A DNA stretch of 63,961 nt, counting the filler, from Intoshia linei (taxonomy: Eukaryota > Animalia > Orthonectida), in assembly GCA_001642005.1 (NCBI GenBank). It is 6 parts of 6 records of this genome, joined end to end, with 100 filler letters (N's around TTAATTAATTAA, not from the genome) between each part and the next. Parts side by side here need not be neighbours in the genome. Positions count along the whole stretch, not along the records: positions 40,952 to 54,697 come from LWCA01000999.1; 5 more parts are not named here. One strand, written 5' to 3'. The notes beneath the pieces were generated by a model that did no database searches, was not told where the DNA came from, and worked only from the letters and a program-made list of their open reading frames with translations. A program made the position numbers and the translations under genes. Shown in pieces: positions 29,732 to 58,349 of this stretch. How positions within the stretch are numbered: the first letter of the stretch is position 1; each line of letters starts with the position of its first letter.

Positions 29732-31519
29732 ATGTGCGCACATTTTATATTTACTGACATGTCGTCAATTTCAAGTGGTTATGGATCTCAATTAATTTCG
29801 ATAAACGAAAGTCATAGATTATCTAAAAGTGAAACCAATTTGACGCATCTTGATTTAGGACTGGGTTCAGAGTTTTATATAGTTAAAAAAAGGAAAGCTG
29901 GCGAAAAAAATAAATCTAAACGAATCAATATGATCTACTATCAAGATTCGGCAGCAGAATTGAATACAGCATATCAAGATATTAAATATTTACATTGCAA
30001 ATTTGATAAAAGTTTCTACAAAAACTTAAAGTTACAAGGTCAATCTATTGAATTACCAGCTCCAAAAATAAAATTGTTAAATGAAACTGTGTCTAATAGT
30101 GCTACCTATACAGAACGTCAGGTAGAAATTTCAAAATACATTAAAAAACGAAATATGGAGATAAACAGATTAAAATCAGCTTTATTTGAATCTGCAAAAA
30201 ACATTTATAATAGTAGTATCAAGTACTCTTCCAATAATAACATAGATGAGTATTTTCAAGAGTTTTTGAATGAATATGAAAATATGATTGAAAATGAATG
30301 GTTACTTCATAATATCAAATTAAATAAGCTGGAACAATTGTATGATAGCCTTGAAAATAACTACGAAAGTATTCAAGAAAATTACTTAAAAATGCAAGAA
30401 AACTCATCTCTTTTTAGACAACCTTTAAATACTCTCAAGAAAGATATTAAAAAAAAATTGAATCAAACCAAATTTATTGTAGACAAATTAATGGAATCTT
30501 TAAAGCCAAAAAGTGAACAACAATTTAAAACATTTGAAAATAATGCAAAAAATTTGACAATCTTAAAAGAAAAATTTACAAAGTATAAACAAATGTTTCA
30601 ACCAATGATCAAAAAATTTGTAGATGTTAATTTAAGTCGAAGCAGTACAGTTCGAGTTAAACGTCGCATCAATTTTTCCAAAACTAATAAAATCAATTGT
30701 AATAAGGAGGTTGTTAAACCAAAATCTTTAATAAAGTGTCAAAGTCAAGGATCATCAGATCTGAACAAAGAAATAAACATAATTAGAAAAAACAATAACC
30801 GAGAAATTGTAGATGAAATTAATGTAAAACAAACAATGGTTAAAAAAAGGAATTTAAATGTACCTTCACTCTCTACCCTACAACATATCAAAAAGAGGAA
30901 CCATTGTAAATTAGAGACTCTTACAAATATCAATAGTAATGATAATTACATGGAATCGACACGTTCTAGCAAATCAGAAACAATTTCAAATAATGATAAT
31001 GTAGTTATCAACACTACCATTAAAAATATAAACAATACTACTAATCCTTTAAAACATGTTCAATTTAAATTTGACATTTTTTTAAGTACTTTTTTATCTT
31101 TAAATAAAATGGATACCAAAATGATTATTGATGAATTTACGAAATCAGCCGTTTATTTCGATTCAATTTCTATGCTTTCTACTGAAATATCTATCCTTCA
31201 AGATAATATTTTGGGAAGTCATGAATATTTTACCAAAATTAGACAAATTATTGGCACCTCACAAGCAATTGTCAATTCAATCAAACAAATGTATTCAAAA
31301 GTTCTTGCTTTGAATGTCAGACAAATATTTATAAAAATTTCAAACATGATTCTCAAAAAAATTCAAAAAATTATTTTAATTACCAATGATATTTCATCAA
31401 TCAAAATGCTCCCTACTACAGTTGTCATTAATCACAGAGTTCAGGTTACCAATTTTTGTATGGAAATATCTAGCATTTACAGTGTTTTTAAACGGTTAGA
31501 AATTTCAAATTGTCTTTAA
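29732..31519 (+). CDS. Intronless 595-aa coiled-coil protein; C-terminal helical bundle resembling the CAS/FAT-like domain
   Basis: 1.8-kb open frame in very AT-rich DNA; heptad-rich middle; C-terminal pattern NVRQIFIKISNMILKKIQKIILIT. Confidence 0.75.
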   Translation: MCAHFIFTDMSSISSGYGSQLISINESHRLSKSETNLTHLDLGLGSEFYIVKKRKAGEKNKSKRINMIYYQDSAAELNTAYQDIKYLHCKFDKSFYKNLKLQGQSIELPAPKIKLLNETVSNSATYTERQVEISKYIKKRNMEINRLKSALFESAKNIYNSSIKYSSNNNIDEYFQEFLNEYENMIENEWLLHNIKLNKLEQLYDSLENNYESIQENYLKMQENSSLFRQPLNTLKKDIKKKLNQTKFIVDKLMESLKPKSEQQFKTFENNAKNLTILKEKFTKYKQMFQPMIKKFVDVNLSRSSTVRVKRRINFSKTNKINCNKEVVKPKSLIKCQSQGSSDLNKEINIIRKNNNREIVDEINVKQTMVKKRNLNVPSLSTLQHIKKRNHCKLETLTNINSNDNYMESTRSSKSETISNNDNVVINTTIKNINNTTNPLKHVQFKFDIFLSTFLSLNKMDTKMIIDEFTKSAVYFDSISMLSTEISILQDNILGSHEYFTKIRQIIGTSQAIVNSIKQMYSKVLALNVRQIFIKISNMILKKIQKIILITNDISSIKMLPTTVVINHRVQVTNFCMEISSIYSVFKRLEISNCL

Positions 31520-32419
31520 TTTAGAATTTTTTCGAATTTGTAATAAATGTTTATAGGTTTCACATATTTTTTACAAATTCATTTTAAATTCGTCTATATT
31601 CCTGCTTTTGCAAAAACACAATAAAGTTATTATGACAATTTTTTTTTCTTATCGTACAATAAATTAATTTAAATGTTGTAATTAATTTCTATTAATTGTA
31701 ATAATTGTGTAATTTTCATTTTCAACGATTTAATTTCTCGAATTCTGGCTATTTATATTATTTAAATTGTATTCAAACAAAAAATAAAACCCAAAAAAAT
31801 TGAGCTAGAAACAAATTTAAAAAAGTAAACTGTATAACTAAACATGGAGAACAATATTATGAAGTCGGTGCCACGTTTAAAAGCTCAAACGCCAATTTCC
31901 GTTAAAAAAAAGTTCAGTTTTACATTTGTAATATATAGTATATATAAATAAAACTGTAAATGGTCAGACTAACTTTACCGTTAGGAGTTGGCCGAAAATA
32001 TTTTACAATAGTTATTATGTTAGTAATAATATAATTTTAAGCCCTAAGGATATTTTTTCTAAATACTCATGAGACACCTTAATGCCCATGAAACAATTTA
32101 AATTAATGAAATTCTATTTTGGCTTGTAAATTTGATTGCTTTTTTTAAATATTATAGTGTCAAAGTTCCATTTGAATAATTAACAATAATTATTTTTGGA
32201 GTGCATTTTAATTATTAATTGTGTTTATTATTAACAAAGTAAGTTTCAAAATTGTACGTATTTATAATTATATTTATGCAAACAATAAAAGAAAATTTGA
32301 TCAAATTTGAACAAAAATTAGCCTATTATTGATAAATAATACTTTTAATCGATTTCGTAAATTGATAAAATTTTGGAAAAATATTTAATTTAATTTTTGA
32401 TATAATTAACCAAAAAAAT

Positions 32420-33160
32420 TTGAAATTTAAAAATTGCGAAGGAATGAATTATATAGATTTTCACCCATATGTCTTTATTGGAAATGTGTAGACGTAAAAT
32501 GCACATTTTTTTTTGAAATTGTAGGATTAATATTTACATTTTCAATTTTTAATTTAATCGAAATATTTGAAAAATATTGGTAGATAATATATTAAAAATT
32601 ATTTTTCACCGGGAATGCGTAGATTTCTGGGGTTGAACTTTTGTATTTATATCAACTGGAATAAGCTCTACAGAAAAACCTTTTTTTTAATTTTCGGACC
32701 ATTAATTATTTGACATTTTTTGTTATAATAAAATATTTAGAAAAAAAATATATGAATACTAAAATGCTTTTTTGAGCGTGAATTCGTCACTTATTCGGAT
32801 TGAAATTTTTTGGGTGTGTTCATAGAATACAACTGTATTACCTGTAAATTTTTTGAAATTCTAGGGCTGTTTTCTAAAAAAAAGGAATGGGAATTTGGGG
32901 TTTTGGCCTGGAAGATATAATTTTTTTAAATTCTCCATCTCGTTTGATTTTCAAAAAGAGAGACAACTGGGGTTTTTGACTCGTAAGATGTGAAATTGGG
33001 AGGTTGAAATTTATATTAATATACCCGAAAAAAAACTGTAATTGAAATGTGATATTTAAAAAATTCGAAGAGTGGTAGTTATTTCAATAAAGTGGAACAC
33101 ACAGACAGACGGACACACACACAAACAAAAATCGCGTAGAATATTATATAAGTTACGATA
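32420..33160 (-). mobile_element. Dispersed Helitron-like non-autonomous repeat with gtctgtctgt microsatellite near its 5' end
   Basis: Inverted match to 225-520 and 1325-2000; its 3' part is repeated at ~58150-58225. Confidence 0.55.
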
Positions 33161-35553: not shown

Positions 35554-38500
35554 TTAATTTCTCTTTCTCCATCTGTGAATCAAAACATTGGCAAATCCTG
35601 CTCTAAATTGACTGTTGTAGAATCCATATAAGAATGGATTTAATGATGAATTTGCATATCCAAGCCATAAAAAGAATTCTTCAAGGTGGTAATTTATGTT
35701 GAACGAAACAAATGGGCGCATAGTAAACACAGTGAAATATGGTATCCAACAAATTAGAAATGCTATTACCACAGATCCTAATGTTATTCTAGAATATAAT
35801 CATTATAAATATCTACTGTAAATTATACGTGGCTTTGTGTTCATTCGATTGGCTCAATTTATTTTTTTTAAATATGTTTCTTAAAGATAAGGATAATATA
35901 TTTTTTTTTGATCGTTTTATTTGCAACGGTTTCAATTCAATGCTTTCCGCTTCCCTTGTTTTTGTGACATTGGTGATCATTTTTTCTAATTTTTTTATTT
36001 TTTTTGTCTAAATTTAAATTTTAAATTTATTATTTGCAATGGATAAAAGTATTTATTTATTGACTAGTTTAATAGTTTGTAATTTCAAATGACACAATGC
36101 CTTTTCTCAGATTACAGATTTCTTAAAAGACGGGTCTCAGTACCATAAGTTCAAATCTATTTTTTATAGATAATGCGATCCAACACTGAAAAATTCTCCG
36201 CCATAAATATGGGTTTAATATAAAATAGTAGTTCTCAAATTGGGCGATATTGCTTATTAATTAATGATAATTAACAATTATATCTAAATTTGTGAAAATA
36301 CTTTATATTCATATCAAATAATATCAAATAATATTAAATTAAAATGCTAGTTTTATCATACTAACATTCATTTTAAAAAGTCAATTTTGCAAAATGGATA
36401 CAAAACCATACAAAAAATATATTTTACTTCTAATTTCCAGCATAGAATTATAATTGATAATTATCACAACGAAAGAACTCGCCAATTTTACTACGTAATC
36501 AACGATAATAATCTGGATTATCTTATGACATAATAATCTTATCACGGCTGACTCAGCGGTGGTAACCATAAAAATTTTTTAACAATTAAAAAAACCATGG
36601 CCGCTCCAATTAAAAACGTATTATATATCAATTTTTACATTCACATTTTATTTTTTCATTTAAACTTGTATAATTTTAAATTACCTATGTGAAAATATAT
36701 GAAAATAAAAGAATAAATTTTTTCAAAATTATGCTGTGTATAGTATATAATACACAGACAGTGAATGCTGATTGGAGATAACTATATCAATTTGGAGTTT
36801 TCTTTATGAAGATATACCATTTTCATGATTTTAAAATTTGTATCAGAGTGTATAGTTTTTTAACTTATAAAAACTGTTTTATTTTCAAAAAAAATTATAA
36901 TTGGGGTTTTTGACCAGTAAGATGTAAGTTTCTGAGATTGAAAATTATCCAACCATCTCCCGGAAAAAACTGATTTGGAATTATTGTTTATTAAAATCAT
37001 AGCTATTGAAATAAACGATAACAGACAAACACAAATGATTTTTTTATAAGTTACGATATATTCTTGAAACAAACAATGACTGTTATATAGGCATAGAAAA
37101 TTGCAATAAAATAGATTCAATAATAATTTAAGATTAGATAGATTAATAGAATTAAATTTATAATATTTATATAATTTAATTTACCGTTATAAATTTAAAA
37201 AAAATTTTATCGATAAAAATATTGTTACCGATAATTTAGCGGTAAATGTTTATCAATTGCCTACCCTAATCTGTATGAATGAATTAAAGAAACATCGATT
37301 CTTTCTAAAAAATCTTTTGATTAGATCTTTAGATCTAAGAGAATTTTAATATTTTTCAATAAATTTTAAATCTTACCATTTCTCAATATGTAATATAATG
37401 AAAATTCAATAATCTCTTTAAATTAGATTATTTTCGATATACAATTACATTATTATAACATAAAATTATAGATTCAAAAATACGTATTAAGGAATATACA
37501 ACAAATTAATTAAATTGGTGCATTGTCCTTAAATTTAACAATTTTTAAATTATTTAAAAAAATTTGAATAAATTTATATTATTAATTCATTTAATAAAAA
37601 TTTCATAAAAATATTTTATAAATTATAATTTTAACTAACTTTATTTATAAAAAAATAGATGCAAACGTCTAGCAGTAATTCCTAAAATGGAAGACTTAGT
37701 AATTTAATAATTTATTTTTGTCTTTATAAAAAAATAAAAAAACATTGATATCAAAATAAATGACATTGACGTTGATCTTGAGGAATATAAACTGAGAGTA
37801 AAACCGGAAAAAACTGTAATTGAAATGTGGACTTTATAAAATTCTAAGACTGGTAGTTATTTCAATAAACGATAACACAAACAAATATTGCATAGTATAT
37901 TATAATATGCTATGATTATATAAGTACACACAAACAAATATTGCGTAGCATATTATAATATGCTAATTATATATAATGATAAGTATATAATTATATAAGT
38001 AAGGATTTGATACAAACTTTTCTTTAATACACTGAAACTAACCAGCATTAGAATAAAAATACAATGTTACTTGATTAATTTGATTTTATAATGAAAATTA
38101 TTTTGAAATAACAGTAAAAACAATATAAACAATAATGAATACAATTTTTTAATAATAATGTGGATTCAAGTGGAATACAATTTAAATTCGACACAAATAG
38201 TACATAAAATCACGCTTTACGTGTAATAATATTTTAATCAGATTAAGAAATAAAAAATTATCTCAAACTAAATATAAATAATTTAAAATAAGAAAGGTAC
38301 AAGAAATTAGATTAGCTAAATTAGATTAGATGGTCTAAAATGTAACAAGATGAATAAAAAATATAATTATAATCAAAATTATAATAATGTTTATCGAGTG
38401 TATTAAACAAACTATAATTAGACATAAATATATAAAGTGACACCTTCAAATTTATTTTATTATACTATTACACTTATGCTTTTTACTATTAAATGTAAAT

Positions 38501-39346
38501 ATTATCGGCAATACACTTTACATTATTAATTTTTTAGTTATTATATAACGAATATTACTTGTTCTCTGGTAACTTTGAAAACTTTCATTGTGAGAGCAAA
38601 CATGACAGCAAGAGGAATAAAATATGTTAAAATTGATACAATTAATACAAAAACTTTGTTTTTTTCAAAAATGCAGACATTATTAGAAATATCAATTTCT
38701 CTAGTGTTTTGAACAAATCCGTCTTCAGTATTCCATCCTGCAAAAATGGGAACAAATGCAAACATTATAGAAATAATCCAAAATCCTGTACAAAAAAGAA
38801 AAACTCGTTTATGATTGATGAGGCGTAAATAAATAAAAGGACGTGTCACAGCAAACCATCTATCTAGTGATATCGCAAATAGTGTTAATATGGAAGTAGT
38901 GCAAAGCATTACTAATATTTATTAAAGATTAATTAAATTTTTAAATAATTACCGTCAAGAGATATCCATATATTACAAAATACATTTCCGAGAAACCAAG
39001 GTTTAACTGACAGTGTTGATATGATACTGAATGGTAACACCAAAATTCCTAATGAAGCATCGGCCATAGCCAAAGAAAATACAAAATAATTGGTTGGAGT
39101 TTGTAAATGTTTTTCAAATATAATTGTTACACAGACCAAACCGTTTCCCAAAATTATTAATATTGTTATTAATACCAATAAAAAGCCTACAATTATTGAT
39201 CTAACAGTAGAAAATTTTGGATAATCGGATGTTTTTGGAATAGGTGTAGAAATATTTATTTGAGAAATTGATGTAGAATTGCAAGATGTTAGAGTAATAT
39301 TGATTATAATTATCAGAACAATGCTTTTAATTTTTAATTCCTTCAT
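35554..39346 (-). CDS. HRH2: Histamine H2 receptor-like aminergic GPCR, 4 coding exons
   Basis: [73 protein letters not shown]. Confidence 0.85.
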
Positions 39347-40951: not shown

Positions 40952-41622
40952 AGAGAAGATGGACAAAGAATCATTGTAAGGTGTGCTAATAGAGTTAATT
41001 CTGTTGAATATATTAGGATTTTGAATAGGTATATCGATGAACTTCATAATACACGATATATTTTCCAGCATGATAGAGCACCAGGCCATAGATCATGAAT
41101 GACAAACAACTTTATCAAAAATAGATACCTAAATACGCTTGATAGTTGGCCCCCACAAAGTTCAGATCTCAATATAATTGAGCATGTATGGGGTATGTTT
41201 AAGATAAATGTTTCAAAAATTAAACCAAGAAATTTGGAACAACTTTGGACTGTTACAAGAGAAGAATTTTATAAAATACCCGATGAATATATCAAGAATT
41301 TATTCAAGTCTTTACCTAGAAAAATAAAATCTGTTATTGGTTCAAATGGTGGTAATACCAGATATTAACAATAATAAATTTCTTTTTTAATTTTTCTTCG
41401 AAAATGTTGCATTTGATTCAGAAGTGCCTAAAACTTTTGCACGGTCATATTTTAACAATTTCTTGTTTCCATCGTTTCTATGTACATTTTACATATTTTG
41501 TTAATCGACACATAATTATCTATGAATTTTAATCACTTGAACAAAATTTTAAGAAGATTCGACACATCGTTATATTAATATAGCCGTTTAAAGGGGGTTC
41601 CTAAAACGTTTGCACGGGTCTG
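40952..41622 (+). mobile_element. Tc1-family transposon 3' half with IR/DR-type right end
   Basis: FQHDRAPGH, WPPQSSDLNIIEHVW, SLPRKIKSVIGSNGGNTRY*; direct repeats cctaaaac.tttgcacgg at ~41427 and ~41600; ends ctg|TA. Confidence 0.9.
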
Positions 41623-41964
41623 TACCATCAAATATATCTTAATGATCCTAACTGTACCAATCACCTTAACTCTCACCATAAACCTCAAGAACTGCAATCT
41701 CTCTACCTTAAAATTAACAAAATTAATATCGCGATGTCAAAGTTCAAAATGAACGAACCATTCTTTAATCAAATAAGGTAATAATCAACCAATAATGTTC
41801 ATGGATCTTTTACCATGATTTTATTGTGACGATGTACAACAAGTATCAAATAAGCCCCTTGATAAATTGAACTCGAACCAAAATACTTCAAAAAAAAAAC
41901 TTTCTAACTTTCTTTTTCTTTTTTCTTTTTTTTTTTTTTCTAACTTGAACCTTTTAAACACTTG

Positions 41965-42145
41965 AGATGTCACACCTTTCATTTGAAATAAGGAAGATTA
42001 CAATTTATTTAACAAAGGATACCCGCAGACAAAAATCGCAAAGCTGTCAATATTGACATGTGCTGTTAACGAAAATATTAAGAAACATAAGCAAGATATT
42101 CCTCTCCAAGATAGAAAACGACTTGGCAAGAGCTTGAAAAAAGTA
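41965..42145 (+). mobile_element. Possible Tc1 N-terminal HTH remnant
   Basis: MSHLSFEIRK..GYPQTKIAKL..pattern with frameshifts. Confidence 0.4.
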
Positions 42146-42785
42146 ATATATGTAATAATACTTGTACAGTAGAATCTCTTTAATTTAAAGTCAATTTCAT
42201 TGAAATACTCTTCATTTTAAATATTCACATGTTCATTTTTATATGAATTTTATAATTGATTTTGAAAATATTTGAATTATTTTATTTACATTTTATATTA
42301 TTAATTAATTTTATTATTACGAAATTTTTTCATTTAAAATTTAGTGTCTCATAGAATGAATATTACTTATGATTTATTTAGTTAATCTTATATCTTATAT
42401 TAATTATCTTAGCTAATATTATAGAGAATTAAATCGTATCGTTGTTCGATATTCGATATATAATGATTTAGCTGCTGTTAAAAGTTATTTGGAATAAATT
42501 TACATTTATTTATTTTTATTAGTCATAAAAACGTCAAATTAAAAATTGTAAATAATCATTGAAGCAAACTTTATAAAACAGAATTATATGACAACTACTT
42601 GCTCATACTTAATATGAGGCTGTCATATTTGATACAGCACTGTCTATATTTGATACGAAAGTGAAATTTCAATATGATCAATTTATCTAGATATAACCAA
42701 GAAATATTCAATACATCGTTATAACTAAACTATAGTCTAAACTAAGTCGTATAAACTTTATTCTATACACAGTTACTACTTAATA

Positions 42786-43296
42786 TTGCTCACACACGCT
42801 ACAATGAATTTGAATAGAGCTTTGAATTTGGCGCAGGATTGGGAAGATGAAGTTGATCTAATTAATGAAACGGAATTAAATACAGTGGATAAGGTAGTGT
42901 CGAGTCCGATTTTTGATACGATGGACGTAAATGATAGTTTTTTAAGTTTAACCAACTTTACACGGCTGGAAATATTAACTTTATATCACCGATTTATCTC
43001 TGTCTATAACTCACACCGTAAATTTCATGTAAAAATTAATTTTTAATTTGTTCTAGCACTCGATTCATTATTGATGTATATGTTTTGAATTAAGACTAAA
43101 CACGTATCCAATTTTATGTAAAGTATTCTAACTAAAAACAACCGACACAGTCAAAAAACTCCTCGACCGTGTGAGATACCCTCTTTTGGAAAGTTTAAAA
43201 ATATAGTGGTGGAGCGACAGAAAATGGCCAGTGACAATAGAGGGTAGGTGGCCTCATGTCGATTTATTGGGAGACAACACAGATCGTTGAGTGGTT
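42786..43296 (+). mobile_element. Decayed Harbinger/PIF-like (DDE_Tnp_4) transposase N-terminal part
   Basis: LTNFTRLEILTLY, ALDSLLMY, LLDRVRYPL, LLGDNT (first catalytic Asp region). Confidence 0.5.
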
Positions 43297-43325
43297 CAAC
43301 ACAGATCGTTGAGTGGTTCAACACA
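43275..43325 (+). repeat. 22-bp tandem duplication, 2.3 copies
   Basis: caacacagatcgttgagtggtt x2 + caacaca. Confidence 0.9.
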
Positions 43326-43871
43326 CAAAGAAAGAAAAACCTTACAATTAATGCTATAGTTCCTGATTATGCATAACATGCAAAAGCAATGAACGAATAT
43401 TCTTTATAAATAAAACGCAACCCGAAACCAGATTTGACGCTTGAAGCCATGGAATCTTATAGGCGTTGCAGACAATAGTGTATCATGATAAAGACATCAA
43501 TGCTATATATTGCTCACAGTTTAAAGAGTTAAAAAGAAGGTGTTATATAGTTTGAAACAACATGTATTGTTATTTTGTGATTTATCACCAGATGGTTTTG
43601 GACGGAAAATTGATGTATTTGTTTGCAGGTGACGATTCAGTTTTGTCGAATTACTTGGAACACGTTGAACTCGATGTCTAAGTATGATAAGTCACAAGGG
43701 CTTTTGGCGATACACTATGATAGAATGATTATGAAATCTTTCGGGATACAAAAATATTATCGTGATTTGTGGTTTAATGGACATTTTTTAACAAAAATAT
43801 ACGATCCAACTACTAAGATAAAAGCATTAATACCTTTCCAACGTAAGTCTGGTGATGCTTCTACTTTTATT
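43326..43871 (+). pseudogene. Endogenous viral element: nege/virga-like (Martellivirales) RdRp fragment
   Basis: Across frameshifts: NEYSL*IKRNPKPDL, ALQTIVYHDKDINAI, ELD/SKYDKSQG (motif A), LWFNGH, KALIPFQRKSGDASTF (motif B). Confidence 0.9.
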
Positions 43872-45800
43872 TATTACTCTCAGTGAATTTCTACGTGGAT
43901 CAATCCCTATAATGGGTGGTACCCCTAAAAAATTCGACCCAAAGTTTCGTATATTCATTCGTCAAATCATTGACCTTCGTGCGCATCAATCCATTTTAAC
44001 CGACCTTTCTTCAAAATTACTCAAAGCCATCAACAAAATTCGAATTTAATGTTCTGGATTACAACAACGTGACATCAACGAAAGAGAAACCTCCCGATTC
44101 AAAACAATTCAAAGTATTTCGATATATCCAACTTTTGCGGCAGCATTAATTCGGGAATAAGAAATATGTTAAATCGTATTGTAGGATCAATGACTAGTGT
44201 AAACAAAGCTTTTCTTTGGTTATCCAAAATTTTGCGTATGGGCTTACTACAAGTCGTTTCACCCACTGTTCCAAACACTATTATCTCTAACTTTCCAAAT
44301 TCAATACCATTCACTATAGGAGCATTAAGTGTTCAACAGGGCATAAACCAAGCAGTCTGGTCTCTCCTTACCGTTGGTTTATCTTCACTTTGGTTAACAT
44401 GGTCTTATATGAGATGAAAGATATCGGAACCAGAATTGGTTTAGAACTTTCACTCAAAGAGTCCGTGTTCTCTATACTTAAAATTTTTTCGAATAATGAT
44501 GACAGTCCACTACAATTGATGGATTCCAACTCACAATGATGACAAAAGGTTTGGCACTCAACTTCCAAGATACTTTGGACACTCAGTATCTTTTTAGTTC
44601 TGCAATTAATGGAATATTGGAAAGAACCGCTAAGAGTAGTGCTTTTGAAACGGGACCACATCAAACGTAGTTCATGAATTGCTTACTGATCATTTATTAT
44701 TATATATTTGACATTCGTTTTTCTACTTCTTGGCATAGCCCTATACCTATTGAAAATTTATTGACCAATCATTTGGAAAATGTTGGAAAGAAATGAAGGA
44801 AGTGGAATCTGAACTTAGGAATACAACAGTGACGACCTGGAATATGAGTCTGAACTAGAGTGTGATGACATTGTTAAATTTTCAGATACCCTGCACTATT
44901 AGTGGTATTGGTTCGAAATGGACAATTGGTTCAACATGGAACTTGAACGCGCATATTTACACTACAAAACTGAAGGTACCCGAATCAAGAAAATAGAGTT
45001 TAATCAACAGTTTCTCAACATAAATAATATTACTGACACTAAATATAGAATTCTCAGTAGTCCTATTCTTTTCACGACTGTTTTCCAATTTCACAACGAT
45101 CATATAACCTCTACAAACCGTAATGTTCCTGGTTTTGGGGACAAAATTATCTACACATAAAATTTCATCAAATATGCTTAAACTCCAAATTCCGGGGGTT
45201 GGAAAAACCGTTTGTAGAGACCATATCTTTACTGACACTTTTGCTGTATGGGACGAGTCATTTAACGCCGCAAATGATAATTATTGCTATAATTTGCTGT
45301 CTCAGCATTTTGACACTTATGCTCACCAGAGTGTTTTTTAAGTGCTGACTTTCTCCAGATGGAGATACAAAATGGAGATGAGAGTGCATTCCCACTCAAT
45401 ATAGCTGATTGTCACTCAAAAGGTACTACTTTCTTCATGTCAGAATTTTTAGTTTGTACAAGTAATGTAGACCCTACAGAAAATAGCACTTCGTTTGGTT
45501 CAGTAATGGTCGACCCAATTGCTTTTTCGAGAAAACTCGATATTTGTGCAAATGTTGCACGTATAGGTTCCTCTAATCCCGTTTTTGACAATAATTCCAT
45601 TTTTTTTTTTACTATAAGAGTAGGAAAATGTCTAACTAAATTAACAGTACGCTTACAATTTTAAAATTCATTATCATAACTGAGAGAATTGAAAAAAGAG
45701 AATGCCATCACATTTGGTTCGTTATTCATAAACTATAAATTTGACAACCCGGAAATCGACACGTTAATAATAGACGAAACCTTTTATCTAAGAAATTAAA
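43872..45800 (+). pseudogene. Endogenous viral element: picorna-like nonstructural polyprotein with 2C/SF3 helicase (upstream limit uncertain)
   Basis: PGVGKT (Walker A), HFDTYAHQSV../ADFLQ (B), AFPLNIADCHSKGTTFFMSEFLVCTSN (C), DPIAFSRKLD; frameshifted. Confidence 0.8.
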
Positions 45801-45829
45801 ATCTGATTAAATAAAAGATGACAATTATA

Positions 45830-46330
45830 AAAAATGGACTATTATACTTAAAGATCAATATAAAAAACGAGTATTTTTTAGTTTATAAAATTAGGGAACT
45901 AAATTTTCCAATTAAATGGTTACACTGACCATTTTTAGCAAATTATACTCAGTCCTCTTTTTGCTATACCGAAAGAAAAATATACTTGTATCATCATCAG
46001 GAATCCCGATGCATGAATTTATTTAAGATCTAATAGATTTTTTTGAAGCTTATAATGATACAATGCCATCTGTATCAGCCACGAGAAACATCAAATATTT
46101 AAAAAATGTTTAGGTCACAAGAATAAAATGGATCGTTAAAAGAAAAAATATATTTATGGTAGTTGATGAGTCCCAAAGAAACAAATTTGGCTACTTAAAT
46201 ATCATGATTAGTTTATTTCGGATAGGGTATATGCTTTTAAATGTATACCTTCGCAGAATTCAGTTAATGCAAATTTTATGTGCACAGCCATCAATAATGT
46301 AATTCGAGAGTTATCAATAGAACGAAAAAA
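45830..46330 (+). mobile_element. Decayed hAT-related transposase fragment
   Basis: SSGIP..MPSVS, IFMVVDESQ..YLNIMI, SVNANFMCTAINNVIRELSIERKNF. Confidence 0.4.
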
Positions 46331-47089
46331 TTTCAGTTTTTTTTCAGTAATTGGGATTGCACCTGTGGTCAATGATAGGCAAAAAGATCTCTTGCAAAAT
46401 TTAAGAGATGTTTAAATGTCACTAAAATTGAAGAAGCATTGCAAAACCTAGTATGCACCATGAACAATATTAATTGAAATGAACTCATTTGGATTTTTTA
46501 TTATCTATGTATCATAGAAAAAATAAATTATATTATATTTGTATCTTTATAATTTAGATTCACTGTGATTCTACGCATTATTACATAACCAAGGACCATA
46601 TGAGCTTTTATCCAAAATATTTGTCAAAGTAAACGTTTTTTATATGCGATTCGACACACAATTTTAAACTGAGTTTGTATACTACAATATATTCTTCTAT
46701 AAATTGGTATAACGACTCTTTTTTACATACAATTTATTAAAATAATTTTTTCCTTTAAGATTTACGATAAATGTAAACGGTTGGCCCACAGCATTTAGTC
46801 GCCTCAGTTTTCGTAATAGTTCAATTTTTATTATAATATATAATAGGGAATAGTTTGTTTAAATAAGATAAAATTACGAGAAAAATATTATAATAACCAA
46901 ACACTTAAAATATGTAAATTAAAATTATATTGGGCAACCCCTCACAATAATTTAGTTAACAATATAATATTCAAATTTCCCTTTAAAATGTGGTATGAAA
47001 TTACTCATATAAATGGTCATATCTGCTAAATTATATGCAATTCATATTATGAATACATTGAATAAAATCATTACATTAATTTAAATATG

Positions 47090-47617
47090 AAGAGTTTTGG
47101 CGAGTTCGTGCCTGCAATGATCTCGACCCTAAAAACTCCGTAGAAGATCATCAGATGCTTTTAGACCAGATTGCATGGCACGAACGGTGAAATTTCCAAC
47201 TAAAATTATGGTTCAAGGAGCAATTAGTGTATCTGGGCCCGGCTCTATATTTGTTATAGAGGGTATAATAAACAAACATAAATATATTGACACATTAAAA
47301 AACTTTTTAAATGATCGTCCAAGTTTTCTAAAATATGCATGTTTTCCACCCGATTTGGTTCCATGTCATACATATTATAATATATAATATTCTGCACGGT
47401 CAGTTAAATATTTTTTTGATTCCAACCAATGGAAAGTATTACCCTGGCCCAATAATTCAGTAGATATGAATCCCATTGAAAACGTTTGAAAGGTATTGAA
47501 AGATGAAGTACATCATGTTCATATTTCGTCAAAACAAGAATTAATTGACCCGACAATATGGGTTTGAAATAATTTGGACAAAATTCAATTATTATGCAAA
47601 AACTTAATAATTGGAAT
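47090..47617 (+). mobile_element. Tc1-family transposase DDE remnant
   Basis: RTVKFPTKIMVQGAIS..GPG, DLVPCH, VLPWPNNSVDMNPIENV*. Confidence 0.85.
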
Positions 47618-48590
47618 TTACTGCTAATTAGAATTTTGAATAAAACAAGAGTAAGATCACACTAATCTATAGATCTAACAATGGGACTATTTGATAAAGA
47701 CCAAGTTGGTGGAAACAGAGATTTGCATATTGTCATCTGAATTTAGGAAATAACAGTATGTTGAAGAATGTTTCTTTACCTCATTGGCTGAGTGTACAGA
47801 CAATGAAATGTTTAAAAGAAAGATAAATATGATTTTCTCATTAAAAGATGGAAGAAGAACTAATATGATATGAGAATATTTTAATTTCAACGGATCACAC
47901 TAGGTGGGGCCAAACATGAATACAATAATGTTTTCTTATTTGGCAGCTTATTGTACCAGACACACCACAGAAGCCTATCTTCCAATAATCATCTGTTGCT
48001 TATTACAATACAAAGTGTTTGAAGTTCCCCCTTGGCTAAATGACTTATACGTAAGATGTAATGCTGCATATACATTACTTATATGCAGATCGCACATGGG
48101 TCAGGAGATATTTCATGGAAGTTTGTCTGTGATGCATGCTTTTTCGAAGACGTCAATACAATATATAAGAGCAGCCGCAGCAAAACTGGAAATAGATCAA
48201 TCTATAGCTCGTCATGTGATACATACAAGTTCTAGTCTAGTGACTAGTAATAATGTGGCTATAATAGAAAGTTTCACAGTGGCAACTCCGGATTATATAT
48301 CTATGGTAACGACAGCTGGTGTATTAAAGTGTAAGAAAGTACACCTTCTGACTATTGACACCATGCAAGAGATTAAGAGCAAAGTAATGATTATCTATAA
48401 GAACTTTAGTGAGATAATCCATTATTTTGGAATAAAAACAACATAAACACAAAATGTCTACTCATAGTATTGAATTTAATTCAAAATATATCTCAAATGA
48501 TTCTATTGGCAGTTTTAACGATTGGCAGATAAAAACTCAGATAAGTTTATCTTTAATAAAAAGATTTATTGATTTGCTGATATCTGGTTC
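47618..48590 (+). pseudogene. Endogenous viral element: bunyaviral (arena/nairo-like) L polymerase core
   Basis: LFDKDQVGGNR (premotif A), STDHTRWG/PNM (A), KVFEVP, HMGQEIFH (B), VTSNN (C), FGIK (D), IEFNSKY (E), all in the correct order. Confidence 0.88.
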
Positions 48591-48732
48591 TAGGGTAGTG
48601 ATATCATCGGATTTTTTACTTTGTTAGACACAATTAGTGTTGGCGTTAGTGTTAGTATCGATAAATTTTTGAATATTTTTAATATCTATTATTTTTTTAT
48701 TTTATTTTTAACTTTATTTTATTATCGCCAAA

Positions 48733-48920
48733 ATGACAAATAAAAGATCTAAAGTATGGAATTATTTTACATTAGTAAATAGTAATGAAGCTAAATGCAC
48801 AAAATGCTATACAATTGTAAAATGTTCAGGAACTACCAGTGTTATCACGTTAAAAATGTCCACAATATTAATTTGAAAGAAGATATAAACCAAACAAAAT
48901 TGCGAAGGATAGATTTTCTT
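48733..48920 (+). mobile_element. BED zinc-finger remnant of a hAT transposase
   Basis: KRSKVWNYF..AKCTKC..SGTTS. Confidence 0.7.
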
Positions 48921-48924
48921 GTTA

Positions 48925-49522
48925 CAGTGCACCCCTGATAACGAACCCTCTTGTTAACGAACTTTAGTAATTAGCGACTTATTAATCAATCATTATAGAT
49001 AAATGCGATAATAAAGCTATATAAGTATTAAATATACACAAAACTTTATTTTTGCACGTGACTGTTTTGATTTATAATTAATTTAATTATTTTTTCAATA
49101 ACGAACAACGAATAGATTATATTAATTTTTTTAATTTTTATTTAACTTTCCCCTTAGATAATGAACATATAAAAAAAATAATAATGGCAAGAAAAGGATT
49201 CGACTAACCTACTACTAAAAGAAAAATGAACTCATTTCATTTGCAGAGAATAATCAAAATTACAAACAAAGAGATTTAGCTGAAAACTATCAAATATCTC
49301 TTGGAACAGTTAATACCATTTTAAAAAGCTCTTCCGTTATCAAAAACTTTCGTCATGAAATCAGGAAAATGAGAAAAAAAAGAAAGTCCATTGTAGATTT
49401 TTTGTCTAGGAAGCAATAAATTAATTTTAAATATTATTTGTTACATATTTTGTTCGTTATCTTTCAATAACGAAGTTGGAAAAAAATAATGACTAAATGT
49501 TCGTTATCAGAGGTGTGCACTG
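48925..49522 (+). mobile_element. Tigger-derived MITE
   Basis: TA|CAGTGCACCCCTGATAACGAAC and GTTCGTTATCAGAGGTGTGCACTG|TA TIRs; HTH remnant KQRDLAENYQISLGTVNTILK. Confidence 0.85.
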
Positions 49523-49914
49523 TATTATTCTACTTTATAAACAAAAATCTATTACTAATCCATTTTCATTATGGCAATAAGGTTTTGAATGTACAGTCTA
49601 ACTCGTCAATAATGAATACCGTAAATAATGAACGAGTTTTGGTCAAAATTCATCCCTTCTATAGAAAATTTCTTCATTCATTACTTATCGTGATTTTTTA
49701 ATTATGAATCTGAAATATCTGAATATTCACTAAATGTAATGTTAACAGTTTTGAAATATGTCACGTAATTATTTTTTATTAGATATGGATTGTCAGTCTT
49801 TTTGGTTTATAAAAAAGACTAACAAGCCAAAATAAAAAGTAAGTTGTATCTACAAAAATGTTAGTGAAAATGAAAATAATCATTGAAATTTCTTAGTTAG
49901 TTAGGAAAATTTTC

Positions 49915-50630
49915 AAAAGAAAGAATAACGTTATTGTTTTGCGTGTCAATGACCGGTGAAAAATATGATATTCTTTTGATTGGTATTGCAAAAAACCCCA
50001 GAAAATTTAATTAAATAAATTTCAACAAATTAAATTTAGATTATAAAAATAATACCAAAGCCTGGATGTCCACAATTATTTTTGAGCAGTGGTTACATAA
50101 ATTTAATTTAAAAATGAAAGACAAAAATAGAAAAATACTTCTGACACTTGACAATGCCCCTGTACACCCTAAGCACTGTAAATATTCAAACATTAAGATT
50201 TATTTTTTCCCACCAAATGTAACATCTAGAATGCAACCTCTCGACCAAGATATAATAGGTGCTTTTAAAAGTCATATAAAAAATTATTGAATACAAAAAT
50301 CTTAATTCGATCAATTAATAATGAAACTTCTTTTTTAAAGTGTCTCAAAGAAATTAAACTTTATGACGCCATTTTACTTATCATTGAAGCGTGGAAATCC
50401 ATATCACCAAAAGAAATATCTAATTGTTATATAAAAAAAGATAGAATTATCAATGCTGGATTATGATGCACTATTTAATATTAATGAGCCTTCAATTGAC
50501 ATCGATTATATTCCATATGATATTGAATCAAACAATATTTCTGATATCATAAGTCCAGAAGAATCACTTGTAAATATAAATGAAAACATTTCTTTGCCAA
50601 ATAATAATAATATTAGAATAATTTTTTTCT
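49915..50630 (+). mobile_element. Tigger/pogo DDE_1 remnant
   Basis: KAWMSTIIFEQWL, ILLTLDNAPVH, FFPPNVTSRMQPLDQ. Confidence 0.85.
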
Positions 50631-50639
50631 ACACCCCGA

Positions 50640-51820
50640 CTTTTAAAATTGTTGAACAATTCTCATTTCCTTCAAACTGACGCAACGTACAAGCTGATTT
50701 ATCAGGGGTACCCAGTCTTAATGATAGGTAGAAGTAATATAAATCGAAAGTTTCACCCTGGCACTATTGCGGTCACAACAAATGAAAAATCGGATGATTT
50801 TAAATTTTTATTCCAATCATTGATTAAGGGAGTTGGTAACAATAATAATTTAATGGATCCAAAGGTTTTAGTAGCGGATAGTTCTTCAGCAATTACAAAA
50901 GCATTTGAAGAAGTTTTCATTATGGAAAAAAAAATATATTGTTTTTTCATTATTATAAAAACTATCACGAAACATACTAGCCTTTGCGCTATACCTAAAT
51001 GTGACAGAATGGAACTTCGTCGAGATATAAATTTTCTTCAAATTTCTTCGTCGGTTGATATCTACAACGTCGCGAAGAATTTATTTCTGACAAAGTGGAA
51101 TCAGTACACTCAATTTTGTCAGTATTTTATTAAACAATGGATTTGCAAAAGCTGGTATGAGGGCGCAGTTTTACATATTCCATCAATAAACAATTCTCTA
51201 GTGGCCACTAATGGTGTAATTAAACGACAAATGACCCTTAGGGAGCACATTCCACTGAATCAATTTTTTAGTGTAATATGTAAGGACATTTTATCGATTT
51301 GGTCTCTAGATAGGAAACGTAATTATTTATTTGTTTAAACATAATATAGCACATTTAATCAATATATTCATTTTTTAGAATATCTCCAATATTCAAGTAA
51401 TTCCAAATTAGAAACTAAAGAATAGACTAATGCTTATTGATGGCCAAAAGAAAATCAACTCATCCGCAAAAAAACATTAACCAATGATGTGACTAAATGT
51501 TATATAATTTCTGTGATGAAAAATGTTGATTTGGATTACGAAATTAACACATATCAAGCTAAATCCTGGAAAAATTTCAATCATTTCAAGGAAAGCATAT
51601 CATTGGTTATTGTGGTAATTATAAATAAATTAAAATGGGAAAAAGCCACATGTACTTGTTCAACTTATCTGAAATGTTATACCTGCAAACACAGTTTGGG
51701 TATGGCAATTAGATTGAAGTATGATTGATGTGTCGTTCCTATTGAAGCTAAACTCTTACCTTTACGTCAAAAAAGAAAAAGAGGACGACCCAGTCTTGCC
51801 AAAAGAGCATTATATTATCA
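50640..51820 (+). mobile_element. Mutator/MULE transposase remnant with SWIM finger
   Basis: LQTDATYKL..GYPVL.IG, LVADSSSAI, CFF, NNSLVATN, CTCSTYLKCYTCKH. Confidence 0.85.
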
Positions 51821-52855
51821 ATGGTTATTATTATGTTAATATTGAGACATTGTATAATACAGCCATACAAACTCAAATCCTCGGCGGGCTGCATTATTTG
51901 TCAAAATTTTCAGGCGGCCGCATCTTAATTTTTTTACAGATTAAGGGTAGGTTTTTAGAGATTTTTTAAACGACGTTTAAAGGGAGGTTATTATGGAATT
52001 TTTATTTAACCTAAGTTTAAGGAAATTTTGTGAAAGATAACGTTTTTGAGTAAAATTCGCCACTGATTGTATATAATATATACAAAGTCGTGCGAGCCGC
52101 ACATAAATTTGAAACTGAAACGTGCGGGCCGCAAGTTTGACATGCCTGGTATAATATATACTATATTACAGTATACTTACGTACGGTATATGAATTTATT
52201 ATATTATATTTGTTTAGAATCATTACTTACAGACAATAATTACATGATAATATTAATTGTATAATACATTTTTACTTATTACGAAAAAATGTTTAAAAAC
52301 GAAAAAAAAAAACACTGATTTAAATGCATTCGAATAAGGATTGTTAAAAAATTAGAATGTGTTAATGTTAGAATTAATGTAATAGTTGATACATCTCCAA
52401 ATAAACTACTTAAATAAAATTAATTGTTAAAATTTAATAATTAATTGACGTTATAAAGTATTGTTATATTTCTTTAAATAAGTGCTAGTTATTTATCATG
52501 TGACATTTCCACTATTCAGATGCTAATTTAAGTGCTAAGAAGAATTTAAGAACTCTATTTAAGTGCTAAATGTTGGACTTTAAATGACGCGTTAAATCAT
52601 AGCCTTTAAATAATAAATTCTTTGAATTCAATCTTTTATGTTATGTTAAAAATTTTGCCAATTTCTGCCAAAAAAGGTCATGCAGTTCTATAACTTTGAT
52701 AGAGAAGCAATTTAAATTGAATTGTGGAAAAAAATTTACATAAAATCAAAAATATGGCTATAAGAGAAATTGAGTTAGCTCACAAAATCTCATAAAAGCC
52801 ATTACATACAATACCTATCTAGCATCAATTTAAAATAAAATATAAAAAAACATAC

Positions 52856-52961
52856 TTCCATAGATGGAGTAAAACAATAAGTTAATTCATAATCTTCACA
52901 GTATACAGGTAAATGAGCTACAGAGTCCATTGGAAATGAATCACCGGCAATGATTACAATT
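52856..52961 (-). CDS. NHP2: Isolated exon of NHP2-like L7Ae protein
   Basis: ag|IVIIAGDSFPMDSVAHLPVYCEDYELTYCFTPSME|gt; flanking NHP2 exons not found nearby. Confidence 0.65.
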
Positions 52962-54171: not shown

Positions 54172-54438
54172 TTAATACATAACGTCACTATATTGACTGG
54201 ATAATGAATTATCCAATTCATTTCTCATAGATCTTTCCCGGTAACGATCAGCAGATTGTTTACGCTTCAATATTTTTTCTCGTTCTCGATCTTTTCTGAT
54301 AAACATGAGTCTGATTTCATACATATGATCCATTTCATTTAAGGCGTTTCTTGATATTAATTCATTTGTTAATAAAACACATATATCGAATTCAATGTCA
54401 AAGTGAATTCTGTCGTATGTGTAAACACCAGATAATAT
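54172..54438 (-). CDS. Unassigned exon, ~88 open codons
   Basis: ttaactttag acceptor then ILSGVYTYDRIHF..KDREREKILKRKQSADRYRERS..MY*. Confidence 0.4.
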   Translation of the reverse strand: MLSGVYTYDRIHFDIEFDICVLLTNELISRNALNEMDHMYEIRLMFIRKDREREKILKRKQSADRYRERSMRNELDNSLSSQYSDVMY

Positions 54439-54797: not shown

Positions 54798-55356
54798 ACA
54801 CCTACCCTTGAACGATCGATAATAAGAAATGCATCTAATTCTACTCAATCTTTAAGGGATATCGCTAAAATCACTGGAAATTGTGTATCAACTACTACTG
54901 TATGGCGAGTTTTAAAAAAATCTATTATTAGACTTGAAAGAATAAAAAAGCTCCTTTATTGACGTTAACCCATAAGCAAAAAAGGATGGAATTTGCAAGG
55001 GTAAATATTGGCAGAAATCCGGGGAAAATATGTTTTTCCGATGAGAAACGCTTTTGTCTTGATGGGCATGATGTGAGAAATGAGAGCCTTGAAAAACTTA
55101 AGAGGCAAAGTAGAGGTGGTAGATTCATGGGCTGGGTTTTAGGTTAACGGGAAGACATCTGTCTTATTTATTAATTGTAAAATGGATTCCATTTATTACC
55201 AGAATATGATTAGCACAAATTTATTGCCTCATAAGGAAAGATTTGATGTTTTTCAACAAGACAATGCACCCATATATGTTTCAAATTCATCAAAAAAATT
55301 TTTTATGACTAAGAATGTTGAGTTATTGTCTTGGCCACCAATGTCACCGGACCTAG
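54798..55356 (+). mobile_element. Tc1-family transposase remnant
   Basis: LTHKQKRMEFAR, FSDEKRFCLDG, FQQDNAPI, WPPMSPDL. Confidence 0.9.
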
Positions 55357-55473
55357 TTAAATTACTTTATATATGTGTTTGTACATTACTTGTATTATCT
55401 TGTTATGAGTAATAATATACTTTTTAATTTTACTTTCTCGTTATTTTTTATCATAGACATTCATATCTCTTAC

Positions 55474-55757
55474 TTCCGAATGATGTGAATCTGAATTAGC
55501 ATATATCAATAGGTGGGATTTTTTACATTCTCTCGTGTTTACATTTATTGAAACTTGAATAAAAAATACTGCTACTAAAAAGAGGGTATCTGATAAAGTC
55601 AAAGCTCTCCACATGAAGTATTTAGTTTTTTTGAAATAACGAAATAATATGTAAAAGGATAAAACATTGCCAAATATACCAATTATGCAACAAATTGCAC
55701 AAAGTAACAATCCAATTATTTGAAATTCTATTTTTTCATAGCGTATTGTTTCATTTT
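55474..55757 (-). CDS. Exon of a rhodopsin-class peptide (FMRFamide-receptor-like) GPCR, TM1-TM2 only
   Basis: IIGIFGNVLSFYIL, ALTLSDTLFLV; AG/GT borders. Confidence 0.6.
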
Positions 55758-56818
55758 CTAATAGTAGAAGATATGGTTTATCAATTGAAGATTATGTTCA
55801 CAATTTATTTATTTAGTCAAATGACTATAAATCTATAAAATCATTTAAGATGTATAATTTCTTACAATTGTGATTGACTTTTAAATTATTAAGAATTAAA
55901 CAATTTGTTAAAAACTAAATTAATAATGCCTGTCAAATAAATTTCAAAATCAAAAGTTTGTCGAGAATTGTAATATGTATTATTTTAATATCAATGTCTA
56001 ATATAATACAATAATATATTATCTAATATAACTTTTATAATTGATGCATTTCAAATACAGTCGTGTCGTGTTATGTGTAGTAATTATTTCTTTTTATTAT
56101 TGATTTCTATTTTGATGTTAGTTAACAAATTTGGTGTAAATGTTTAAATTTAATTTTTAAATATAAATTAAGTCTAGTTGAATCACTAAATTAATTTTAA
56201 ACAGGATATTACTGTACAGCAATACTATTCTAACGTAAACAACCTTAGAATAAATTATAATTCAAAAATATATAAATATATACAAGTGCCTATAAATTCA
56301 ATAATTAAAAAAGGTTTTGTAGATTAATACTATGCGTGGGGTACATTTAAAATTTTTTAGCATCCTATATTTTGCATATACTCCATATAAAGTAAGTATG
56401 TATATAAAACTAGTGTTAAGAGTCTTATATTGTGTAAGTGTATGATTATGTCAATGATCTTAAAAGCTGTATCAGAGTGTTTATTTTTTAAAACTATGGG
56501 ATTCGTTTGATTTTTAAAAGCAGGATAATTGGAGTTTTTGACAATGAAGAATTCTATTTCTGAAAATGTATTCCTCACTTTCACCTCACTTTAAAAAAAC
56601 TGTATTAGAAATTGGTTTTTTTGAAACTTTACGCCTCTTACTCTATGAAATAAATAGTTACCGATAAACAGATTGACATACATTTTAAGCTAAATTACTT
56701 TAAACTAGATACACTTACTGTAGGTATAAATTAAGTAAGAATAATTTAATTATAGAAGTTATAATATAATTGTGTGCCAACTTGAAAATAATTAAGAATG
56801 ATTTGTATTTATAGCGTC

Positions 56819-57119
56819 AGCATTTTAATCTGTAAAGTGTCAGTATTTTTAATAGTTTTTCAGTAAAAATATTAAATTGTCAGTAATTTAAGTTTATTTT
56901 TTGTCAGTATTTTTTTACTGACAAAATATTATTTTATAAAATGTGTTTATTTCTATATACTTTACTAAAGCAATTAAAAACTGACAAATATGTAATTCAA
57001 TACTGACAAAGTACATTTTATTACTGATATTTTAATATTTATACTGACAATTTTTTATTAAAATATTGACAGTTTCGGTAATTAAATACTGACAAATAAG
57101 AATTAATTTCTTAAATGCT
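56819..57119. repeat. Palindromic foldback-like element built from tgtcagta / tactgaca units
   Basis: Left half repeats gtcagta, right half repeats actgaca; ends agcattt..aaatgct. Confidence 0.55.
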
Positions 57120-58349
57120 CTATTTAAATAGTAATACATTATTTTTAATTAGTATATACTAACAAATTGTAAGTTGTATATTAAATATTGAAAAAGCAAA
57201 AATTTTTATGGAAAATGAAATTTTCTCTATTTATAATACAAAAACGTCAATCAAAGTAAATTAATGCAATCATTAATTTATTTCATCGAGAATAAAAATA
57301 ACAATTTGAGATATTGTAAACGAGATTTTTAAAATTACTGTAAAAGATGTAAATTGAATTTAACGTAAAGGATTTATTTTTACGAGACGGATAAAATGCC
57401 AATGTCATTATCATATTTGCAGTAAAAAGTTTCCTAATTCACGTTGGAGATTTTATCGTATATGTAAACTAGGTTGACTGTTATGTACTACGTACAAACA
57501 GGACCTAGCTCTGGCGAGGGCACATTTTTATTATACCAAAAAAATGAATTCATGTTGAAAATCTAACTTAAAAATCCTACTTTCACTGTTATCAATCCTT
57601 TAAAAGAGTGGTTCCCAAATTTGTTTCAGGTGGAACCATCATATCACATTACTTTTTACTTTAAAGTGAATTATTCCACTTAATTTTTTGTTTGTTATTA
57701 TTTGCGAAAAGAATTTTAAAAACAATTGTTAGCCCAATTTTTTAATTTATTAGATAGAATGTGTGTATAATATTAAAAATAAAGTAAAAACACTCCAACC
57801 CTAAAAATTGTCATAAATAGCATAAATTCCAAAAAAAATAAAATTATAAAAACCTATTTTGTCATTTTCAATATGATAATATATATTCAATNTAAAATTA
57901 TAAAAACCTATTTTGTCATTTTCAATATGATAATATATATTCAATATTAATTTAATAAATATTTAAAAATACCAATTATGTATCAATAATTAACCGAATC
58001 TTCACTTTATAAACATATTTTAAACGAATTTACCAAATATTACAAAGGATTGTAATAAATATAAAAATGATACTAACAAAGTTGTATGACTTTTAGTTTT
58101 GTTGTTGTAGTTTCTATTTAAATTTTATTAAAAATGTTTTGAAAATGATAATTTAAAATTTAAAAATTGCGAAGAAATGAATTATATAGATTTTCACCCA
58201 TATTTTTGTATTAGAAATGTGTATTATTAGTATTTAACTTAAACTTCAATCTGCATAATTTCTAATATATATCTAAATAAACATATAATTGGTGAAACAG
58301 CTGTATTTACGTTAATATTAAATATATTTTATATATTGGAATTTTTGAA

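Follow-up and report, generated by a model that had tools for sequence, protein, structure and literature searches.

The window, a stretch of 63,961 nucleotides, contains at 40952–52150 a block in which fragments of RNA viruses are interspersed with transposon remnants, every tool-confirmed piece lying on the plus strand. The host is confirmed as the orthonectid Intoshia linei and is not an insect, as the preliminary description had held, and its claim that some 11 kb contain no recognisable host gene stands as well, since none was found within 40952–52150 and the NHP2 exon at 52856–52961 on the minus strand lies beyond the block. On its left the block begins at an assembly gap, the contig itself being flanked by two gaps (at 40852 and 54698), and the composition is AT-rich over its whole length. 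The features, in window coordinates, are as follows.

40952..41448, plus strand: remnant of the 3' half of a Tc1-family transposase, ending like a terminal repeat (DDE_3, E 3e-10)
41987..42170, plus strand: piece that may be a Tc1 N-terminal HTH (by eye)
42804..43280, plus strand: possible Harbinger/IS5-like transposase piece (by eye)
43280..43871, plus strand: alsuviricete (virga-like) RdRp, endogenous fragment (RdRP_2, E 1.5e-16)
43872..45150, plus strand: virus-like coding tract, no family (35% GC)
45150..45661, plus strand: putative picorna-like SF3 RNA helicase, endogenous fragment in two frames (PF00910)
45680..46460, plus strand: one Merlin-like and one hAT-like piece, possible DDE transposases (by eye)
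47131..47613, plus strand: another Tc1-family remnant, truncated on either side (DDE_3, E 7e-5)
47614..48515, plus strand: bunya-like L protein (polymerase palm), endogenous fragment (best E 3.2e-24)
48516..48924, plus strand: short terminal piece, multicopy, followed by the start of a hAT-type element with its BED finger (zf-BED)
48925..50620, plus strand: Tigger/pogo element with CAGTG-type end, HTH piece and DDE_1 domain (DDE_1, E 4e-22)
50622..51830, plus strand: MULE transposase remnant with SWIM finger (MULE, E 2.7e-12; SWIM, E 0.002)
52856..52961, minus strand: coding exon of a host NHP2-like gene (L7Ae family), bounded by AG/GT (Ribosomal_L7Ae, E 1.1e-5)

The three RNA-virus fragments that had been proposed, from a virga-like RdRp, a picorna-like SF3 helicase and a bunya-like L protein, are packed into 5.2 kb, and following established taxonomy we take them to represent three phyla. 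Homology to RNA-virus proteins, weaker in the case of the helicase, is combined with embedding in host DNA and with decay in the form of stops and frame changes, as in non-retroviral endogenous viral elements (EVEs). The virga-like RdRp fragment stops after motif B and carries in-frame stops and two frame changes; it has 16 relatives apart from I. linei's own gene model, with a best identity of 65%, and 43636–43909 is present in public run X2 with zero differences. The NCBI model A3Q56_06057 / OAF66221.1 includes this piece; it joins three unrelated pieces of the block and is probably no genuine gene. The bunya-like L fragment, interrupted by stops and two frame changes, has 41 relatives, including Drosophila Sunshine bunyavirus and metagenomic viruses; a Bunya_RdRp domain was found in 4 of the 12 relatives tested, and a tree gave the fragment no supported placement within its group. 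The helicase is the weakest call of the three, the PF00910 profile matching collinearly in two adjacent segments (profile 7–52, 13.3 bits; 68–105, 18.5 bits; cut-off 21.5), with no relatives in the protein collection or the viral contigs and one chance-level match in the PDB. A rival weak match to picornavirus VP3 (E 0.026), equally a picorna-like reading, was set aside in view of the collinear two-part match and the order of the motifs, which speak for a helicase. The tract at 43872..45150, with a GC content of 0.353 against 0.21–0.24 in the non-coding flanks, is likely the upstream part of a picorna-like polyprotein. Searches with it returned neither family nor relative, and the 16 loci with relatives of the virga-like RdRp held no credible match to 43.9–45.1 kb, one 35-aa segment (29%) being discounted as chained to the RdRp match.

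As for the transposons claimed earlier, two Tc1 remnants, the BED/hAT start, the Tigger/pogo element and the MULE hold up, the Harbinger-like piece, the first hAT-like piece and a third Tc1 found confirmation in no library, and the supposed two Tiggers are best read as one interrupted element. The 5' part of the first Tc1 remnant, which has a high summed depth in run X1, disappears into the assembly gap, and a motif at 41435 presumably marks its terminal-repeat-like end. Other copies of the second Tc1 in runs X2–X4 part from the window at 47131 and 47613, and the repeat boundary at 48516 is common to all four runs; the zf-BED match that follows reaches 21.6 bits (cut-off 20.6). The Tigger/pogo element, with what we take to be a CAGTG-type end, also gives a weak CENP-B match (E 0.51). 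The MULE remnant keeps a 60-nt GT..AG intron, with a spliced joint at 51318–51379 in X2, and was therefore inserted as DNA; the possibility that the transposon pieces are captured cDNA was rejected on the grounds that this intron is still spliceable and that terminal motifs survive. Four pieces, all on the plus strand, are candidates recognised by motif and by eye: the Tc1 HTH at 41987..42170 (no Pfam match, no relevant PDB match), the Harbinger/IS5-like piece at 42804..43280 (confirmed by no library; included in an X1 contig), and the Merlin-like and hAT-like pieces within 45680..46460 (at 45.7 kb and 46.1–46.4 kb, neither confirmed by any library), after which multicopy DNA occupies 46.6–47.1 kb. 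No reverse transcriptase, integrase or gag family occurs among the block's 114 segments; with no LTR or LINE piece detected, the LTR retrotransposon enrichment of a flamenco-type cluster is absent, a point against the explanation preferred further on.

These segments are the stop-free stretches of at least 36 aa scanned in the block (60 plus, 54 minus). None of the 54 on the minus strand has a transposon or virus family, the matches there being weak and to unrelated families, while all eight tool-confirmed independent viral or transposon pieces lie on the plus strand (p = 0.008, a value that ignores the post-hoc choice of the block in a 42%-repeat genome). Transposon and virus fragments are thus co-oriented, as in a uni-strand piRNA cluster. 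The earlier count of ten pieces, with p of about 0.002, is right as to orientation and too high as to number, since setting aside the unconfirmed pieces and reading the Tiggers as one leaves eight. Outside the block, Pfam-backed remnants number three on the plus strand (26.1, 54.8–55.4 and 62.3 kb) and two on the minus strand (62.0 and 63.1 kb); the minus-strand remnants that the preliminary description placed at 29 and 33.2 kb received no family, and no remnant was found among the 147 segments in 1–21 kb. The same contig has a multicopy minus-strand coding piece at 54175–54438 and two weak minus-strand transposase matches, below cut-off, at 52.7 and 53.2 kb, all of which count against the explanation preferred below. 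It is quite improbable that the block is no more than a common graveyard of transposons and a hot spot for insertion, oriented by chance and accompanied by a stray duplicate of the NHP2 exon. The genome does consist of 41.8% repeats, with DNA transposons at 8% of the genome, the boundaries were picked after the fact, 4 of the 12 candidate pieces are unconfirmed and, if 100 comparable blocks are assumed, an all-one-strand block of eight is expected with p = 0.54. However, viral content marks the block irrespective of strand, so that the uncorrected p-value applies unless virus-bearing blocks are common, and an X1 contig runs unbroken across the NHP2 exon, as a single copy would give.

Runs X1–X4 were examined as contigs, X2 coming from another study than X1. 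An X1 contig covers 42532–46023 at a depth of 14.7 and joins two of the viruses to their flanks, and X2 contains near-identical pieces of two viral tracts (depth 3–7, unstranded contigs), which could be explained by DNA carry-over, although spliced joints in X2 suggest RNA. The bunya piece is seen and linked in the assembly only, 47634–48479 being covered by no run. One X1 form is without 1,664 bp, including the entire bunya piece, and one X1 contig is without 345 bp of the helicase, so that some haplotypes are losing the archive, which also counts against the preferred explanation. That part of the block is misassembled, or has come in from the nemertean host or some other contaminant, is scarcely credible. 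The contig ends at two gaps and is spanned whole by no listed piece, and no run bridges the bunya piece, across which an X1 contig joins; but that joint cuts the Tc1 and the Tigger end, both continuous in the window, and so reads as a deletion. Moreover, the stretch spanned by the X1 contig at 42532–46023 recurs in pieces in a separate study, stops and frame changes interrupt the viral pieces, and the composition is AT-rich all along.

The NHP2 exon, new with the present analysis, lies 0.7 kb past the block and occurs in spliced form in runs X2 and X4. No neighbouring NHP2 exon was found in the window, 11.9 kb of contig yielded none downstream, and a full-length NHP2 protein search, a weak test, gave no candidate. 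With the next NHP2 exon absent from the window, the block may sit antisense in an intron of at least 12 kb, or the exon that it lies behind may be a stray copy. The exon is a plausible candidate source of minus-strand transcription through the block, which follows an internal exon and not a gene end, readthrough clusters starting just past an expressed gene on the same strand. The neighbouring receptor gene has a 2.7-kb intron, and the median intron of I. linei is 57 bp. It is somewhat unlikely that the block is simply an intron that has swollen within a host gene on the minus strand, or the region downstream of such a gene, where antisense insertions were tolerated, sense insertions were purged for interfering with transcription or splicing, and the viral fragments are carried along neutrally, with no part in defence. 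The missing downstream exon, the deletions segregating at the locus and the long intron of the receptor gene agree with such a history, as does the established antisense bias of intronic elements in mammals. Yet the short median intron speaks against it, and DNA transposons have the weakest orientation bias of any class within human transcripts, so that plain intronic selection predicts a weaker bias than that seen. Nor is AATAAA depleted on the minus strand of the block, where it is in excess (35 against 23.7 +/- 5.1), a result that also counts against a piRNA precursor, and three virus phyla in 5.2 kb are left unexplained.

The explanation that we prefer, tentatively and with slightly less than even confidence, builds on what was observed, namely the pieces with their strand and decay, together with the NHP2 exon: the block would be a germline locus of I. 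linei, likely read on the minus strand and probably within the NHP2 unit, that yields antisense guides of the piRNA type. A host retroelement would have reverse-transcribed viral RNA prior to insertion, transposons would have inserted as DNA, and deletions would have squeezed the pieces together; minus-strand transcription would traverse the block, and insertions lying antisense to the transcript would have been retained by selection for their contribution to a PIWI pathway. Minus-strand guides would pair with the mRNA of all three viruses, the negative-sense one included. I. linei possesses three Argonautes, listed as PAZ-PIWI proteins, and one Dicer (PMC7943196); parasitic flatworms have lost PIWI, which counts against the piRNA reading. 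The fuller proposition, that in a highly reduced orthonectid an intron of NHP2, a housekeeping gene, serves as a one-strand piRNA trap of DNA transposons, not LTR elements, with guides against three RNA-virus phyla, and so forms a haplotype-polymorphic, heritable antiviral memory among Spiralia, is unlikely as it stands.

The fragments document, as fossils, the entry of virga-like, picorna-like and bunya-like viruses into an orthonectid germline. If small RNAs confirm the preferred explanation, multi-virus one-strand piRNA archives would reach from mosquitoes to a spiralian parasite, and a named host gene, NHP2, would be the driver of such an archive; the locus is small, polymorphic and open to testing. 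Drosophila flamenco, which is far longer, is likewise a one-strand stack of decayed mobile-element fragments, but gypsy-LTR-rich and with a promoter of its own, whereas the I. linei block consists of DNA transposons and RNA viruses, with no LTR piece detected. Mosquito core clusters hold antisense non-retroviral EVEs, with transcription that reads through from genes upstream (bioRxiv 10.1101/2022.08.22.504762); like those of Aedes, the block has several co-oriented virus fragments, with a host coding exon of the opposite strand upstream of them, but it is known from sequence, follows an internal exon and belongs to a spiralian parasite. In the literature searched on I. linei viruses, only a passing mention of one viral RdRp was found, a viral-family RdRP noted in the proteome (PMC6396948), which may be the one at the present locus; the section concerned does not mention the cluster, the helicase or the bunya fragment. 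Endogenous virus copies in non-arthropods are also the subject of PMC6085071, which reports primary piRNAs derived from EVEs for dog whelk, for starfish and for sponge or anemone; among the lineages that show evidence of negative-strand 5'U small RNAs, that of the dog whelk, a mollusc, is the nearest. As described there, those cases are single virus-like contigs with small-RNA data, whereas I. linei presents a multi-virus locus known from DNA.

The segment at 40952-52150, carried on a 13,746-base contig (40952-54697) whose left edge is a 100-base gap, is a real and unusual block from a little-studied phylum, in which fragments of three RNA viruses lie on one strand, with a putative function. 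The window has the composition of AT-rich animal DNA, its host genes having small introns, and its gaps (28599, 40852, 54698, 61253 and 62715) each consist of 44 N, a 12-base stop linker and 44 N. The features discussed are as follows.

43280-43871, plus strand: alsuviricete RdRp piece (RdRP_2, E 1.5e-16)
45150-45661, plus strand: picorna-like SF3 helicase, two adjacent segments with collinear PF00910 matches
47614-48515, plus strand: bunya-like L protein palm (41 relatives, best E 3.2e-24)
52856-52961, minus strand: L7Ae-family exon (E 1.1e-5; AG and GT ends)

The three viral fragments of the preliminary description are supported by RdRP_2, PF00910 and the L relatives, the helicase most weakly. 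The RdRp piece is broken by stops and two frame changes. Leaving aside the host's gene model, it has 16 relatives, named virga-like viruses among them, with a best identity of 65%. That NCBI model, A3Q56_06057 of the orthonectid Intoshia linei, recovered by searching with the RdRp piece, fuses three unrelated block pieces and probably does not represent a true gene. A short direct repeat of about 23 bases lies at the fragment's left junction (43280-43325), around which the contigs of X1 and X2 (of X1-X4, public sequencing runs compared with the window as assembled contigs) are gapped. Bunya_RdRp is present in 4 of 12 tested relatives of the L fragment, and names were found for two of nine that were checked, polymerases of Drosophila Sunshine bunyavirus and of Bunyavirales sp.; in a tree, no position of the fragment within the bunya-like group gained support. 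The helicase segments score 13.3 and 18.5 bits, singly under the 21.5 cut-off, and we take SF3 motifs A, B and C to be present in order. Because no relative was found in protein and viral-contig collections and a weak picornavirus VP3 match (E 0.026) overlaps it, the helicase is, judged on sequence, the least certain assignment. The 1.3 kb upstream, assigned to no family, shares its 35% GC.

Misassembly is very improbable, since a 3,154-base X1 contig (depth 14.7) spans 42532-46023, differing by 7 substitutions and lacking 345 bases of the helicase, and X2, from a different study, is identical over 43636-43909 and carries two further virus-like-tract pieces with one difference each; X1 may be the sample from which the assembly was made. 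Another X1 contig (depth 15) joins 47290 to 48955 via 9 other bases and skips the bunya piece, for which the assembly is therefore the one source. This joint, whose shorter side is 69 bases, interrupts a Tc1 and a Tigger end, both of which run on unbroken in the window, and the X1 form is thus read as a derived deletion.

On the plus strand of the block, Pfam backs two Tc1 remnants as well as a BED finger, a Tigger/pogo and a MULE, and the block's 114 segments (60 plus, 54 minus) gave no minus-strand match to transposon or virus families. The earlier claim that every piece lies on the plus strand thus holds for eight tool-backed pieces; four more were placed there by motif, which library tests did not confirm (p = 0.0005 for twelve independent pieces). 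Remnants on both strands outside the block were likewise borne out in part, with three Pfam-backed on plus and two on minus, none of them in 1-21 kb. PMC7943196 (supplement 1) gives 41.8% repeats, 8.0% DNA transposons and 1.3% LTR for the genome, so that with about 100 comparable blocks some all-one-strand block of eight is expected (p = 0.54). Chance as the source of the shared orientation is nonetheless improbable, and the bias is persuasive only because viral content singles out the block independently of strand (p = 0.008 for eight independent pieces).

Several other repeats occur in the window. A retrotransposon integrase remnant lies at 62905-63448 (minus), and reverse-transcriptase-bearing elements thus exist nearby. 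A multicopy coding piece of no Pfam family (54175-54438, minus) shares the block's contig in the opposite direction, and beside it X3 has a 233-base CT..AC skip, which marks a minus-strand intron of some related copy. A Tc1 remnant (54798-55412, plus) adjoins an exon resembling GPCR helices 1-2 by eye (55444-55791, minus), for which no significant Pfam match and no later exons were found. Non-coding repeats, direct and inverted and 77-95% alike, at 1-1900, 32400-33150, 36800-38000 and 56450-58200 are likely MITEs.

The exon at 52856-52961 is, from its sequence features, presumably NHP2. In X2 and X4 it is joined to in-frame coding sequence precisely at its ends, which, together with the GT..AG and CT..AC skips that X2 and X3 contigs show, suggests that X2-X4 are RNA libraries, although none is so recorded. 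Neighbouring NHP2 exons on both sides were absent across the window. An X1 contig (52552-53326) crosses the exon unbroken, suggesting that it exists only once in the genome; in that case the block sits antisense in an intron of 11.9 kb or more, the alternative being that the exon is a stray duplicate. A protein search, a weak test between the two, yielded no candidate for a full-length NHP2. The species' median intron is 57 bases (PMC6543705). Purifying selection within an intron, with no defence role, is a rather doubtful explanation of the orientation: selection against termination finds no backing in the count of minus-strand AATAAA, which is in excess across the block (35 vs 23.7 +/- 5.1). 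Directly left of the block in the window, a rhodopsin-family receptor (35557-39346, minus) has 7tm_1 on three exons, two of them 2.7 kb apart, and a stop-free frame of 601 aa without Pfam family occupies 29714-31519 (plus).

We tentatively favour, at somewhat short of even confidence, accumulation and antisense retention as a piRNA-type guide source. Captured viral cDNA and DNA transposons would have built up in a region read on the minus strand, transcription would cross the block, and antisense insertions may be retained since they would supply guides. Intoshia linei encodes three PAZ-PIWI proteins and one Dicer but lacks a cellular RdRP (PMC7943196); parasitic flatworms lack PIWI (PMC11114477).

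The block is classed, from its sequence, as a cluster of endogenous viral elements that are non-retroviral (nrEVEs) and a candidate piRNA locus. That I. linei has a viral RdRP had been remarked on before (PMC6396948), and the cluster is not described in the searchable literature on Intoshia or orthonectid viruses, which excludes most subscription papers, the species' genome paper included. EVE-derived piRNAs are on record in a mollusc (PMC6085071). Unlike flamenco, defined by an LTR criterion, the block has no LTR family among its segments, whereas its layout would work like that of the Aedes core clusters (10.1101/2022.08.22.504762).
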